A DNA stretch of 64,000 bases, from assembly GCF_058153355.1 (NCBI RefSeq), contig NZ_JBLWLY010000002.1. The stretch is one strand, 5' to 3'. This document shows, one piece after another, positions 52,901 through 58,900 of the stretch (its first letter is position 1; the number at the start of each line of letters is the position of its first letter). A program made the position numbers. Source of the DNA: a plasmid.

Positions 52901-55900
52901 TAGGTGCTGTGGGCGTAAAGTTCTGATTCAGCAGATTCGGCGTAACCGGCAGATTGTGGTCAGAGTTTGTGGTCGCCCTGAACTTGCGTTTCTGCTTACA
53001 GTGCAGCCTCAGCTCCTTACGAAGACGTGCCAGTCTGTCACGACCGACGATAATTCCGTTATCTGCCAGCTCCGTCTGGAGCCGCCGGGTTCCATATGTT
53101 TCGCGAGTGCGGATATGTGCCACCTTAATCTCCAGTTTTAGCCGCTCATCACTTTGTTTTCTGTCTGAGGGGGCATGCTGTACCCAGTCGTAATAACCGC
53201 TCCTGGATACACCAGGTACCCGACACATCGCTTCAACAGGGAATTGTTGTCGCCATTGTTCGACTAACGCGTATTTTTCAGCGACTCCCGGGCAAAATAC
53301 GCTGTTGCTTTTTTTAATATATCTCGCTCAAGTCGTGCTTCATTTAAAGCCTTACGCAGTTGCATAACTTCCAGCCACTGTGCGGGAGCCAGGTGTATTG
53401 AGCCCTTTTCTTGCGGCGGTAACCCATTGTCCTAAAGTGCCTTCAGGAACAGATAATCGGGAAGCGCCTTCACTGAGCGAAAGCTGATTTTCAGGAACCG
53501 TTTTGACGGCTTCGGCTTTAAACTCCGTAGAGTAACGTTGGGTTTTTCTGCTCATTATTGGCTCCTTCTGATGCCATTCTATTTCAGGAAGGAGTGTCCG
53601 TTAAACTCAGGCTACCTCACGCTTCAGGCGGGCATTTTCAGCGGCCAGTTCACTTTCACGCTCAGACGAGGTCATCTGTTGCTGCAGTTTGCTGCGCCAC
53701 GCATAGAGCTGAGATTCATACAGGCTGAGTTCACGGGCTGCGGCAGCAACACCGATGCGTTCAGCAAGCTTCAGGGCTTCACTGCGAAATTCAGGCGAAT
53801 GCTGTTTACGTGTTTTTTTGCTGGTTGATATTGTTTTTGTCATGTGAGTCACCTCTGACTGAGAGTTTACTCACTTAGCCGCGTGTCCACTATTGCTGGG
53901 TAAGATCACTAACAATCAGAAAAAATAATGCTTTTAGCCAGTACGCTTTATAACCCCGTCCTTCAGGGCGGAGTTATAAGGCGCATTTTTCTGCATGACG
54001 GTTTTTGTTTAAGATGGTGACATGAAACGACTACAAACCTTCAAATTCCAGTTAAAGCCAGATGGTCAACAGGAGCGTGAAATAAGACTATGCAGAGTAA
54101 AACGGGGCTTTTGTGGTCGAGATCGTACTTTGTCTGTAGCACTGGAGGGGCAACGATTGAAACGCTCAGAGTCTACGTTCAGAGTCAGTCAACACCTGAT
54201 TGATCTTTAAAGCCCTGCGGGCTTTTCGCCTTATATCCCCGCCCGCATTGGGCGAGGGGTTACGGCGTTTTCGCTAAAAAATAGTCGTAACGTGGTTTGT
54301 TTTCCGAATTCCAAGCGGCCCCCTTGTAGGACAAGGGGCCGCAGGTCCATCAAACGATCGTTTGATGGAGAAGGTTGTCTGATAGCTTCATTTATACATA
54401 TGTGCTAATGTGGGTTTGTGTATTTTAAAGGAGATGCGCCTATATGAGCCGCCTGACCATTGACATAACAGACCAGCAGCATCAGAGCCTGAAAGCACTG
54501 GCTGCCCTGCAAGGTAAGACCATCAAACAATACGCTCTCGAACGTTTGTTCCCTGGTGATGCAGATGCTGATCAGGCATGGCAGGAACTGAAAAAAATAC
54601 TGGGAAACCGTATTAACGGTGGGCTGGAGGGGAACGTTTCTACCAAAAGTATCGGAGACATTCTTGATGACGAACTGAGCAGAGATCGTGTGTGACCACC
54701 TATATACTTACAACTGATGCGGAAGCCGACTTGCGAGGCATCATCCGCTACACGCGTAAACAGTGGGGGGCCGCACAAGTTCGTCGCTATATTGCAAGGC
54801 TGGAACATGGTATTGCAGATCTTGCTGCCGGGCGAGGTTCCTTCAGGGATATGAGCGAACTCTTTCCTGAATTACGGATGATACACTGTGAACATCATTA
54901 TGTTTTTTGTCTGCCACGCGGGAGTGAGCCTGCACTAGTTGTTGCGATTTTTCATGAACGCATGGATCTCATGACCCGGCTGAGCGAGAGGCTCAACATC
55001 GAAAGTTAACGGTTAATGAAGTCTAGGCCAGCTTCAACACTTCATCCAGCCGGGTAATCGGGTAATGTTTAACTGCGGCATCGTTTATGTGGTCACATTG
55101 GCCGGAATATCAATTTATGGTTTCGCAGAGGTATACCCCAATGTGACAGGCTGACGCGCCCGTCGGGCTTGTCCAACCCCTCGCCTGTCCAGAAACAAGT
55201 TCTGTACAGACTCACGGTTTGCGCTGTGGGTCAAAACATTAAATACGATCACCAGAAATACTCAATATGTGATTTCGCATGCGAAATTTATTGCATATCA
55301 TTATTGATACTTAATAGTTTATCTGTATACTGTTTATGTCGTCATGAAAGTACGACAAAAACGCAGTAGCAGATAGCTGCTTCTGCATCTGGCGAAACGC
55401 CTGACTCACAGGAGTGTGTATGAAATACCACGATGAATTCTTTTCATTACTGAAATACCCTTTTAAGCCGTGCCGCCCCTTCTCAAACATTTCGCATGCG
55501 AAATCTTAAGGACTGTTACATGACACTGAAAATCGGACCTATCGGCAAACTTATCGTTGTATGTAGTCAGAAGGGCGGAATCGTTAAATCGCAGTCATCC
55601 AGTGAAATCGCACATGACCTTCGTAAAGCTGGTTTCCGTGTGCTTGAAATTGATATGGACTGGACAACTGGTCTGACGGAGAGGGCTTTCCCTGACAGAT
55701 TACCTTACGAGATAGAACGCGAACCTTTAAGTAACAGTTTTACACCCGGTGAAGCGAATACATATCAGCTTTTCTTTTCTGAAACAGATATTCGACCGAT
55801 TGAGCTTCCTGGCGGGCGCTTCTTTATCGGTGCTACCAGTGAACTGAATGAAATTAACTACCGAAACAGCGACTGCATGTTCGACTTCAGGGACCGTATT

Positions 55901-58900
55901 GAAGAACTGAAGAATCAGTTTGATTTTATTATTGCTGATTCAGCGCCATCTTATTCAAATGTTATGATCGCAGCGCATATGTCAGCTGATTATCTTCTGA
56001 TCCCTACCCTGCTGGAGAAGCAGGCCCGTAATGCAGTTGGTAAACAGCTTACTTATATGCAGAAAATTAAGCGGAACTACAATCCTTCGCTGCAGTTCAT
56101 GGGGACTTATGTGACCCAGACGCAGGTAAAAAATTATAAAAAGCCACTTAAAGAAGGATATCTGGGGCCTATTGATACGCTGAATCTGAATCTCCTCATC
56201 GAGATCCTTCAGGGAAAAGGTTACTCTGAAGAATACATTCTTGCCTATATATCATTTGTACCTGCTGCTGCAAAAGAAGCGATCGAACTTGGTCTCTCCT
56301 TTGATGAATATGACCCCAAGTGTCTTCCTGCAATTCAGTATAAAGAACTTACCCGGAAAATTATTCTGCTTGCAGGAGGTAAGTAATGGCCAAGAAACCG
56401 TTTATGAGACGACTCCAGGAGCAGCAGGAAATGAAAAAAAATGCTTCTGTTGTTTCTGATATTGAACAGGTCATTGCAAATAAACAACCAGATGAGCAGA
56501 ACCATGATATGGCTGCGCACCAGATTATGGCGGATATTGCCCGTCCGGATATCGAACCTGATGGACAGATAATCCGTGTCGATATAAATTTGGTTTATGC
56601 TGAAGAACAAGTGCGACCTGAAGAAGACTTCGAAGAAGATATTATCGATGGTATGGCTGATACCTTCGAAACGATAGGGATGCTTACCCCGCCTCGTTGT
56701 TATCCTCGCGACAGACGTGGTTACCAGATATGGTTAGGTGAAACGCGAGTTCGTACTGCTCGCAAACGTGGTGATACCCATATAGATATTTATGTTGGCA
56801 AACCACCACGGGAAAGAAAAGAACGCATCATCGGTCAGCTCATTGAAAACCTGCAGCAGTCAGGTTTAAAACCATTAGCGACCGCAAAATCGTTCTATGA
56901 GCTCAAACATCAGTTCAATATGACGGGTGAACAGATCGCAAAAACGATGGGTAAGCCTACCTCATTTGTCAGTAAACACCTTCGTCTCATTGATGCACCG
57001 GAAAATGTCACTGCCCTTTTCCGGGATAAAGTCACATCCGATGTCGATCTGGCATACACATTAATACAGGTAAGTGAAAAGTCTCCCGAAGAGGCCGAGA
57101 AGCTTATCGCGGCTGCGCGGGAGTCAGGTATTTCACGTGCGCAGGTTAAAGCTGTTCTTGATGCAGTTAAGAACAGAAGCAAAGGTGAGATTTCGCATGC
57201 GAAATCTAAGGCTCAGAACAAAAAAACAACCAAGCCTTCGGGCAGCAATTCTGATGTAAAAACCTGGCAGGTTGTTGTCGAGATAGACGGTCAGCAAGGG
57301 GTAATAATGACTGACCGTGCGCCAGACGAAGCTGGGTATGTGTGGGTTAAAATGGAAATTGGTGAGATTTCAGTTGAGGCTTCTGAACTACGCGTCAAAG
57401 GGATGCGCTGTCAGTGATGAAATCAACCCCGTTCACCGAAATGGCCACGGCATTCCGTGGCCAAATTGTCCGCCTCTGGACGCTTCGATATCCCGGTACG
57501 CAATCCGAAGCAGCTGCCGCATTAACAGAAGCAGCTATCAATCTGGGATATGTTACAAGAAACAGGCCAGTACCCGGCGCGGCGTTACTTTCATGGGCTT
57601 CTAATCCAGCTGAAACTCCGTTATGGGCAGCTCAGACGGCGTTAGCATTGATGTTCAGTATCGGCTGGAAGCCAGAAAGAAACCAAGACTGGTGTGGTAT
57701 GTCAGCGCTGATTTTCAGAGCTAATCGTACACTTCCACTTGAGCAGTTAGTTGCTTCCTTGCCTGATAGCATAGACAGGCAAGTTGCTATCGGATGGTTC
57801 GTGGCAGCAATTGAAGAGGATGCCAGCTACCGTTACAACAGGAAATCTACATGACCTTTCAAGAGCTTGATGCTTGTATCGCAGGCTCTGGCAGACGTTC
57901 TATCGCTTCTGCATTAATCGCTTTTATTCTTGATGCGCTTGATGACGGACAGGACGGAGTAGATCTTGATACCTTCCAGAGCCATACGCGCTTCGTTCGT
58001 AATAATGTAACCACGGTAGCCAGTTACCTGCAGCTACATGGAATTATTCATATACTGTATTACCGTGATGGTGCTGCAGAACGTCAGTATGAGTCCGTTA
58101 ATAATTACGGGCGGTGGGCAAAGCAGTACTATCGTCCTTCTGAGGTTCTTAAACAGCTGCATCGACGTGGTTAAATCAAAAGATTTCGCATGCGAAATCT
58201 CTCGGTGACAGATCATCTTATCATTGCCATCGGGAGATCATTCCAGCGCGTTGTGTACGCAGGGGAAAGCATTTCTCGTTTCATTTGCCACTCAGGAGCA
58301 ATGCCCCGGCCTGCAAACCACACTTTCCCAGGCCTGAATGGTTATGAGGTAGCCTGAGTTTAACGGACACTCCTTCCTGAAATAGAATGGCATCAGAAGG
58401 AGCCAATAATGAGCAGAAAAACCCAACGTTACTCTACGGAGTTTAAAGCCGAAGCCGTCAAAACGGTTCCTGAAAATCAGCTTTCGCTCAGTGAAGGCGC
58501 TTCCCGATTATCTGTTCCTGAAGGCACTTTAGGACAATGGGTTACCGCCGCAAGAAAAGGGCTCAATACACCTGGCTCCCGCACAGTGGCTGGAAGTTAT
58601 GCAACTGCGTAAGGCTTTAAATGAAGCACGACTTGAGCGAGATATATTAAAAAAAGCAACAGCGTATTTTGCCCGGGAGTCGCTGAAAAATACGCGTTAG
58701 TCGAACAATGGCGACAACAATTCCCTGTTGAAGCGATGTGTCGGGTACCTGGTGTATCCAGGAGCGGTTATTACGACTGGGTACAGCATGCCCCCTCAGA
58801 CAGAAAACAAAGTGATGAGCGGCTAAAACTGGAGATTAAGGTGGCACATATCCGCACTCGCGAAACATATGGAACCCGGCGGCTCCAGACGGAGCTGGCA

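Follow-up and report, generated by a model that had tools for sequence, protein, structure and literature searches.

The central control operon of the IncP plasmids RK2/RP4 has the gene order korA-incC-korB-korF-korG, and the parS site of chromosomal Soj-Spo0J systems is TGTTTCACGTGAAACA. Besides genes for a ParA and a ParB, other plasmid partition operons of the KorB type possess additional genes: korA and orf11 in the IncU plasmid RA3 (korA-incC-korB-orf11-parS; PMC7414963), the small winged-helix gene 053 (PF09904), located directly after parB, in IncC plasmids (parA-parB-053; PMC10954446), and parR and parC, encoding a small helix-turn-helix (HTH) protein and a protein of unknown function, in the four-gene operon parA-parB-parR-parC of the IncP-9 plasmid NAH7 (PMC12421886). 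Accessory roles are played by, or have been proposed for, KorA/ParR in IncP/IncP-9, 053 in IncC and Orf11 in IncU (PMC10954446, PMC12421886, PMC7414963). Here, we describe a partition operon found in 64,000 nucleotides of plasmid DNA (NCBI RefSeq assembly GCF_058153355.1, contig NZ_JBLWLY010000002.1; this whole stretch is called the window), in which parA and parB are followed by two genes of unannotated families, orf3 and orf4, and are accompanied by a 16-bp palindrome that occurs four times. Extra genes in a partition operon are already known from KorB-type systems, and it is this variant that is uncharacterised. The operon is probably an intact copy of a widespread enterobacterial KorB-type partition-and-control module, with orf3 and orf4 as possible accessory components.

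Results

An earlier note on this DNA had described a parA-parB pair and, downstream of it, two translationally coupled open reading frames (ORFs) of 145 and 107 amino acids (aa) that resembled nothing known. This gene order is supported and both sizes are correct, and the stop/start overlaps given for the parB/orf3 junction (TGATG, 57415-57419) and the orf3/orf4 junction (ATGA, 57851-57854) are present in the sequence, as is a further overlap between parA and parB (TAATG, 56384-56388). The palindrome reported in the same note, ATTTCGCATGCGAAAT, occurs exactly at 55272, 55489, 57190 and 58183, and in the 64-kb window no further copy was detected when up to 3 mismatches were allowed. With 3 mismatches allowed, 0.48 copies would be expected by chance, and none of 100 dinucleotide-preserving shuffles reached 4 copies. 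The distances to the genes were also given properly, the second copy ending 15 nt before the parA ATG (55520) and the fourth having its first base 9 nt after the orf4 stop. The operon and its control region comprise the following features, in which the ParB boxes are predicted ones:

55272-55287, unstranded: ParB box 1 (distal), a perfect palindrome of 16 bp with the -35 hexamer 16 nt downstream
55293-55310, unstranded: box B, a second inverted repeat GCATATCAtTATTGATAc, distinct from the ParB box and containing the -35 hexamer
55304-55331, plus strand: predicted sigma-70 promoter of the operon (TTGATA, 16 nt, TATACT), the best consensus match in the region (10/12)
55391-55415, plus strand: invariant leader block GGCGAAACGCCTGACTCACAGGAGT, which holds a Shine-Dalgarno sequence and two hairpins, GGCG/CGCC (small) and ACUC/GAGU
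55420-55509, plus strand: small upstream ORF of 29 aa, MKYHDEFFSLLKYPFKPCRPFSNISHAKS, which contains ParB box 2 and starts after the invariant Shine-Dalgarno sequence
55489-55504, unstranded: ParB box 2 (proximal), in the 5' leader, ending 15 nt before the parA ATG
55520-56386, plus strand: parA, 867 nt, a 288-aa Walker-type partition ATPase without an N-terminal DNA-binding domain
56386-57417, plus strand: parB, a 343-aa KorB-type ParB with ParB_N, a KorB HTH and a weak KorB_C barrel
57190-57205, unstranded: ParB box 3, within parB, where the linker that joins the HTH to the C-terminal domain is encoded
57417-57854, plus strand: orf3, 145 aa, all-helical by model, unannotated family
57851-58174, plus strand: orf4, 107 aa, winged helix by model, unannotated family
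58183-58198, unstranded: ParB box 4, 8 nt after the orf4 stop codon

A longer parA ORF of 296 aa that starts at 55496 is probably an artefact, since its ATG lies inside the palindrome and homologues are annotated with the 288-aa start.

The components by which a type I ParABS system is recognized are present at this locus, namely a ParA with a deviant Walker A motif, a ParB with ParB_N and HTH domains, and repeated palindromes adjoining the operon. ParA carries the sequence CSQKGGIVKSQ near its N-terminus, in which the deviant motif is of the form KGGxxK[ST], it matches ParA/PrgP/SopA/MinD models (phrog_164 ParA-like, 1.3e-23), and its ratio of non-synonymous to synonymous substitution rates (dN/dS) is 0.06. 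Because the matches to SopA and RepA-type models begin only at profile positions of about 106-225, an N-terminal domain is considered absent. ParB scores 77 bits with TIGR00180 (cutoff 58.45) and matches the Pfam families KorB (PF08535, 3.6e-16), HTH_ParB (2.4e-9), ParB_N (3.7e-5) and, weakly, KorB_C (PF06613, 2.3e-3), the latter also being on record for a ParB homologue from Mixta. Its best sequence matches in the PDB are structures of Spo0J, ParB, Noc and KorB.

The palindrome was followed through ten related loci (L001-L010) that show from 95% to 66% DNA identity and come from Enterobacter, Raoultella, Citrobacter, Klebsiella, Providencia, Mixta and metagenomes. All ten have it at four matching relative places, that is, about 210-230 bp upstream of parA, before the ribosome-binding site, in parB and after orf4. 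Boxes 2 and 4 are exact in all of these loci and box 1 is exact in most of them, with 1-2 mismatches in L003, L004 and L005 and more degeneracy in L002. Box 3 is kept where ParB identity is at least 59%, with one mismatch in L006/L007, and is absent in the more distant L011-L013. It encodes EISHAKS within a variable linker of ParB and therefore it is the DNA and not the protein that would be under conservation there. The box after orf4 is found in every fetched locus that covers this position, including the distant L011 (core only), L012 and L013. Box 4 had also been considered as a terminator and was rejected, as no T-run follows it and a terminator scan found none on the plus strand there.

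A 14-bp core of the palindrome, TTTCGCATGCGAAA, persists where ParB is only 21-48% identical (Serratia pAHRB3, Yersinia ruckeri pLT, Enterobacter pENT-d4a), and it differs from the core of the IncC parS site, TTTCACATGTGAAA, at one symmetric position pair. Purified IncC ParB shifts a 22-bp form of parS in electrophoretic mobility shift assays (EMSA), whereas the bare 14-bp core is not bound (PMC10954446). The core also shares the CGCATGCG centre with the NAH7 site TTTCTCGCATGCGAGAAA, which is bound by NAH7 ParB in EMSA (PMC12421886). As the core is conserved in position and near-identical to the core of the IncC parS site bound in EMSA, the palindrome is very probably a ParB site that serves as centromere and operator. 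The same proposal, made in the earlier note, is thus supported by conserved positions, by placement at the promoter and by likeness to the IncC and IncP-9 sites.

The IncC system has been published for R55 and pSN254 and was compared here using pSN254. Both systems have a short ParA and a ParB with ParB_N, a KorB HTH and a similar C-terminal barrel, the two ParB proteins being 29% identical over their N-terminal and HTH parts and 44% identical over 41 C-terminal residues. In both cases a site lies in the par promoter, at which ParB of IncC autoregulates, further copies occur near other promoters, which for the present module applies to native plasmids and not to the window, and parB is directly followed by a small gene, 053 in IncC (PMC10954446). 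In contrast to the single extra gene of IncC, two are present here; orf3 has no counterpart in IncC, and neither orf3 nor orf4 matches PF09904. Alignment of the orf4 profile with the 053 family by hhalign gave an E-value of 0.006 and a probability of 6%, which is not significant and was not accepted as homology, the aligned stretch being the helix-wing region, and orf3 against 053 gave nothing. IncC plasmids have 12-14 sites over the whole backbone whereas the present module family has 3-9 clustered around par, and IncC ParB requires bases that flank the 14-bp core (PMC10954446).

The NAH7 operon resembles the present one in having four genes and a palindromic site. Its parS occurs in six copies, some of them at other backbone promoters, and its ParB doubles as transcription factor (PMC12421886), as ParB would here. 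It differs in that ParR is a KorA/TrfB-domain protein, in that NAH7 ParB lacks the C-terminal barrel, and in that NAH7 ParB activates transfer genes whereas the box position here suggests repression. When the orf3 and orf4 profiles were aligned with NAH7 ParR and ParC by hhalign, all probabilities were at most 1%. With the IncP and IncU systems the operon shares a KorB-type ParB, which there acts and here would act both as centromere binder and as regulator at several promoters, as well as extra small genes downstream of korB and, in the case of RA3, a centromere site after the last gene. Those systems have a second small HTH repressor whose operator lies beside the KorB operator, an arrangement paralleled by the ParB box (box A) and box B here. 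In contrast, the present operon encodes no KorA/TrfB homologue, its operator sequence is another one, far fewer sites are found and the module resides on enterobacterial narrow-host backbones instead of broad-host-range plasmids. A TrfB-related gene was encountered 1.5 kb downstream of the module only in the distant pENT-d4a locus.

Chromosomal ParABS systems likewise combine a short ParA with an HTH ParB and a 16-bp palindrome with TTTC / GAAA half-site ends, in several copies spread over kilobases and partly inside genes, whereas the ParB described here has a KorB-type HTH and a C-terminal barrel in place of the chromosomal C-terminal dimerisation domain, carries GETR and ENLQQ variants of two conserved motifs and is accompanied by two additional obligate genes. 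The 288-aa ParA, without an N-terminal autoregulatory HTH, differs from the type Ia systems (P1 ParAB, F SopAB), and the 343-aa HTH ParB differs from the small ribbon-helix-helix proteins of type Ib systems (pTP228 ParFG, pB171 par2, pSM19035 delta/omega). The extra proteins encoded here resemble KorA/ParR, 053 and Orf11 in position, not in sequence, and may be analogous to them.

The earlier note had proposed a survey of homologous par loci for conserved synteny of the two ORFs. When 72,556 plasmids of PLSDB were searched by tblastn at a threshold of at least 80% identity, ParB was found in 603, orf3 in 603 and orf4 in 609 records. The four-gene module is thus present on about 600 plasmids (~0.9%), as their only ParAB system or as one of several; most are from Klebsiella, 140-360 kb in size and typed as non-mobilizable. 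Many plasmids of the IncFII type from Enterobacter, Citrobacter, Salmonella and E. coli carry it as well. It is carried by pRJA166b, the virulence plasmid of an ST23 hypervirulent Klebsiella strain (PMC5955457). Every more distant homologue inspected had a ParA, a KorB-type ParB, a gene for 145-147 aa and a gene for 106-117 aa with overlapping junctions, and the synteny of this array held to about 30% identity and, in an exhaustive profile search, to an E-value of about 1e-12. The backbones include IncFII, IncFIB/IncHI1B virulence plasmids and Rep3 plasmids of Mixta, Providencia, Serratia and Yersinia. As judged from these sequence surveys, orf3 and orf4 are inseparable from this ParB clade. 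The statement of the note that a four-cistron partition operon is unusual was therefore overstated, the more so as IncC parA-parB-053, IncP-9 parA-parB-parR-parC and IncU korA-incC-korB-orf11 have been published. In the open-access literature searched, the centromere of this module, its regulation and its two extra genes are not described, and only generic mentions of parAB on IncR and IncF plasmids were found.

Both orf3 and orf4 have dN/dS values of 0.10-0.21 against relatives, similar to ParB, and the alignments show conservative substitutions; by these sequence measures they are real genes under purifying selection. No match to either protein was obtained in Pfam, NCBIfam, PHROGs, PADLOC or PDB sequences, a profile search included, KorA/TrfB was not matched in Pfam or NCBIfam, and a Pfam search with 36 diverse members of the orf3 family, longer ones included, returned nothing informative. 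AlphaFold models of orf3 and orf4 are confident (predicted local distance difference test scores of 92.5 and 94.1, respectively) and predict a winged-helix fold for Orf4. Orf3 is modelled as a new all-helical fold, a part of which weakly resembles an Xre-type HTH, and its weak structural matches include the anti-CRISPR-associated repressors Aca7 and Aca2 and the antitoxins HigA2 and MqsA.

An exhaustive profile search recovered 113 representatives of the orf3 family among 1.84 billion cluster representatives. Several members are 200-370 aa long and have unannotated extensions; that those of 215-265 aa might be orf3-orf4 fusions was discarded, the orf4 profile finding nothing in them. One distant member of 147 aa (L018, 5001-5444; E-value ~1e-7) stands alone, without ParAB or orf4, on a 220-kb contig resembling an integrative and conjugative element, where its neighbours, located upstream of type IV secretion genes, encode ArdA, an antitoxin (CbeA) and a protein with an HTH_ParB domain.

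The region upstream of parA was aligned for 8 loci. Both promoter hexamers are conserved in 8/8 and, within box B, which begins five bases past the distal ParB box, ATCA.TATTGATA is invariant. In L006 box B is a perfect 20-bp palindrome (at 3231), GCATATCAATATTGATATGC, and the repeat, of which this is the consensus, is also found at 8139 in L013 and at 5737, 12558, 16283 and 19811 in Y. ruckeri pLT, where box B adjoins ParB boxes at three other promoters. Box B is a candidate operator for another protein. A correlation of box B variation with the putative Orf3 and Orf4 recognition helices was looked for, and no pattern was seen.

Downstream of the promoter a leader block of 25 nt (consensus GGCGAAACGCCTGACTCAyAGGAGT) is invariant before the par operon in the 8 loci. 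Small hairpins between the promoter and this block show a few compensatory changes, and in the RNAalifold prediction the ACUC/GAGU hairpin of the block sequesters the Shine-Dalgarno sequence; a search of Rfam with the operon and leader gave no match. The small upstream ORF stops at the TAA of TAAGGA, the Shine-Dalgarno sequence of parA. In five loci translated by hand it is open (24-31 aa), its sequence and frame vary and its start/stop context is constant, which suggests that parA translation is coupled to a leader peptide and possibly modulated by ParB. Distant modules carry a gene of about 113 aa upstream of parA (Yersinia pLT, 7021-7359; Serratia pAHRB3, 2315-2656), whose products share 43% identity and, on visual inspection of the sequence, look like an OB fold of the single-stranded DNA-binding protein type. 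In pLT this gene lies directly before parA, that is, in the position of the 29-aa ORF, and the latter could therefore be its functional replacement or remnant.

All four boxes of the window belong to the module and none lies at an outside promoter. In native plasmids boxes also lie outside the operon. The 57.9-kb plasmid pLT has six boxes, all within 14 kb, and those at 12518, 16243 and 19770 head operons outside par. Four of the pLT boxes head a repeated cassette consisting of box A, box B with the -35, the -10, a hairpin and the leader, and such cassettes precede the par operon, an operon in which psiB and psiA accompany the gene of a large ParB_N-domain protein, and two further operons of the leading region. 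The leader block recurs in pLT at 5813, 6990, 12634, 16359 and 19887 with 2-4 changes and heads four or five operons. In a 116-kb IncFII plasmid seven boxes are found within 7 kb, and one of these precedes, at a distance of 20 bp, an operon of an SOS-response-associated peptidase (SRAP) gene and umuDC. Taken together, the boxes of native plasmids look like a modest KorB-like regulon as far as sequence allows one to judge.

Two other layouts were noticed. In L001 (CP039391.1, 9058-10506) and many IncFII relatives a 1.4-kb gene for a RES-domain protein (NAD+ phosphorylase) is inserted between orf4 and umuC. ParB boxes flank it on both sides, two of them distally, which points either to control of the insertion by ParB or to a site of recombination marked by the boxes. 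In Serratia pAHRB3, eight ParB boxes lie upstream of parA (1055-2996), about 160-490 bp apart, and one more follows orf4. The upstream array is reminiscent of a dedicated centromere and differs from the arrangement of four sites in the window.

The window belongs to a pINV-like invasion plasmid with ipaH, ospD3 and ospC1, whose aligned backbone parts are 96-97% identical to pINV of enteroinvasive E. coli and Shigella sonnei. The par module is surrounded by the following features:

52367-53619, minus strand: insertion sequence (IS) of the IS3 family, left copy, transposase matching NF033516 (327 bits)
54444-55009, plus strand: type II toxin-antitoxin pair upstream of the par promoter (antitoxin, 83 aa, 54444-54695; toxin, 105 aa, 54692-55009)
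58199-58344, minus strand: 146-bp stump of the 3' end of umuC (Y-family polymerase), convergent and cut by the right IS copy
58345-59597, plus strand: IS of the IS3 family, right copy, an arm of a perfect inverted pair

The two IS arms of 1,253 bp each are inverted and 100% complementary, and they enclose a segment of 4,725 bp that contains the ParE toxin-antitoxin pair, the par module and the umuC stump. The toxin (54692-55009) matches ParE_toxin (PF05016, 1.2e-15), and a RelE/ParE toxin with its antitoxin is annotated in related plasmids and contiguous with par in Salmonella NZ_CP051369. Similarity to native plasmids reaches window position 58344 (query position 3245), where the underlying feature is umuC, the Y-family DNA polymerase gene. 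The best full-length relatives of the par module are ~95-96% identical plasmids of Salmonella, Enterobacter, Citrobacter and Klebsiella; no record of the plasmid collection matched it above ~96%, and Shigella is absent among the ten genera listed when the module without IS flanks was the query. Against a phage collection the region gave IS matches only. The segment looks like a composite-transposon-like capture or the product of an inversion. Given the identical inverted IS pair, the ParE pair and the umuC stump around it, the module would therefore be an IS-captured import of a maintenance block into a pINV-like plasmid, with the four genes and all sites intact.

ParE pairs recurrently precede the par module, in either orientation, in a Raoultella and a Salmonella plasmid and in metagenomic relatives (L002, L006, L007). 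The window has four copies of the 272-aa transposase ORF, in both IS arms and at 4231-5049 and 24700-25518. Directly beyond the right IS copy lie a gene for a serine recombinase/invertase (186 aa, 59866-60426) and, on the minus strand, a gene for an IpaH-type leucine-rich repeat E3-ligase effector (576 aa, 60523-62253).

Discussion

The KorB nature of ParB, box B, the conserved leader with its small ORF and the IS bracketing go beyond the earlier note. That the operon is a ParABS system with the palindromes as operator can be held with considerable confidence. In such a system transcription would start at a single promoter and run through a leader with a small upstream ORF and then four translationally coupled genes. 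ParB dimers would bind the palindromes, probably as clamps dependent on cytidine triphosphate (CTP) that load and spread, and a single partition complex covering about 2.9 kb, the operon itself included, would be formed. Nucleoid-bound ParA-ATP, stimulated by the ParB N-terminus (MAKKPF..RL), would separate the partition complexes. At box 1, which abuts the -35 hexamer, and at box 2 in the leader, ParB would repress its own operon; with one box abutting the promoter and one between promoter and parA, the geometry is that expected for ParB autorepression. On native plasmids, ParB at the other boxes, of which some lie at promoters and some at gene ends, would regulate a small regulon of maintenance and leading-region genes in a KorB-like manner.

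For orf3 and orf4 the proposal is made with less confidence. They may be obligate components of the module and not cargo; the winged-helix Orf4, alone or with Orf3, may bind DNA, for which box B is the best candidate site, or alternatively Orf3 and Orf4 may contact the ParB complex and tune repression or segrosome assembly. Most likely, then, they are accessory regulators or segrosome partners, although the accessory-regulator reading itself is a tentative one and falls somewhat short of an even chance.

Several observations weigh against this proposal. IncC 053 is dispensable for partition of a parS mini-replicon (PMC10954446) and NAH7 parC is dispensable for stability (PMC12421886), and extra genes in such operons therefore need not act in partition. 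Orf3 and Orf4 have no detectable sequence relation to KorA/ParR, ParC or 053. In the Mixta loci L008-L010, box B is degenerate in its left half though orf3 and orf4 are intact, and because box B contains the -35 hexamer its conservation may partly be mere promoter conservation. The palindrome, box B, the leader strings and the RefSeq protein accessions appear in no paper of the open-access literature searched. With respect to ParB, the clade has the motifs GETR(V/W)R(T/S)A (GETRVRTA in the window) and ENLQQSGL, at residues ~118-125 and 153-160, where canonical proteins have GERRxRA and ENLQR, so that the first arginine of GERR and the arginine of ENLQR are replaced, while the invariant G, the second R, E and N of the nucleotide-binding motifs are retained. 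CTP-dependent clamping is plausible and, because of these variants, only assumed.

A more far-reaching version of the accessory-regulator proposal, possible but doubtful, is that Orf4 at box B, together with the adjacent ParB clamp, would silence the repeated promoter cassettes as a non-homologous analogue of KorA, that Orf3 would bridge to ParB/ParA, and that the unit would be a central control operon.

The alternative that orf3 and orf4 are passengers, namely establishment or anti-defence genes (or their regulators) expressed from an autoregulated par operon, appears unlikely. It draws on the neighbourhood of native modules, which border umuDC, the SOS-response-associated peptidase gene, ardA, psiB-psiA and DNA methylases, on the matches of Orf3 to Aca7, Aca2, HigA2 and MqsA, weak as they are, on the distant orf3 relative (E-value ~1e-7) that stands alone among ArdA and antitoxin genes without ParAB, and on the dispensability of IncC 053 and NAH7 parC in partition or stability assays (PMC10954446, PMC12421886). 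However, orf3 and orf4 co-occur 1:1:1 with the ParB clade in PLSDB, the overlapping array is kept across very different backbones, some of them without any umuDC or leading region, and the last ParB box always lies past orf4, which places both genes inside the predicted ParB-bound domain. PADLOC also gave no match, although this is a weak point as its models are for defence and not for anti-defence genes. Among the options offered in the earlier note, anti-defence cargo is the one least favoured, since orf3 and orf4 always stay with this ParB, even at deep divergence and on different backbones.

It is very improbable that the palindrome is bound by Orf4 and/or Orf3 and that ParB acts at another site or non-specifically. 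The palindrome co-occurs with orf3/orf4 exactly as it does with parB and co-occurrence cannot separate these candidates, but its length, symmetry and half-site (TTTC.C / G.GAAA) are typical of sites of HTH-type ParB proteins, its core is nearly identical to the IncC site shifted by the 29% identical IncC ParB (PMC10954446), it is close to the NAH7 site bound by NAH7 ParB (PMC12421886), and box B offers a separate site for another protein. That orf3-orf4 might be an addiction (toxin-antitoxin-like) pair appended to the par operon can practically be dismissed, for although the genes are small and overlap, Orf3 weakly matches HTH antitoxins, and plasmid maintenance regions often join par with toxin-antitoxin genes, as with the ParE pair just upstream, Orf4 is by model a winged helix instead of a known toxin fold, neither protein matches a family of toxins or antitoxins in Pfam, NCBIfam or PADLOC, and toxin-antitoxin pairs move independently whereas orf3 and orf4 never leave this ParB.

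The locus is of value because its host plasmids are medically relevant and because it raises clear, testable questions about Orf3 and Orf4, and not because of a new principle. A pINV-like plasmid would have acquired a foreign partition and toxin-antitoxin block by IS-mediated capture. Knowledge of the ParB site provides a handle for incompatibility-based plasmid curing and helps to predict interference among co-resident plasmids or islands, as is exerted by SGI1 with IncC parS, and the two obligate proteins are a test case for the recruitment of partners by KorB-type ParBs. If the unit were a central control operon, it would be a specific curing target for a large group of plasmids of enterobacteria, a Klebsiella hypervirulence plasmid among them. 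Partition would be linked to establishment after transfer if the leading-region promoter cassettes are under the control of ParB and a partner.

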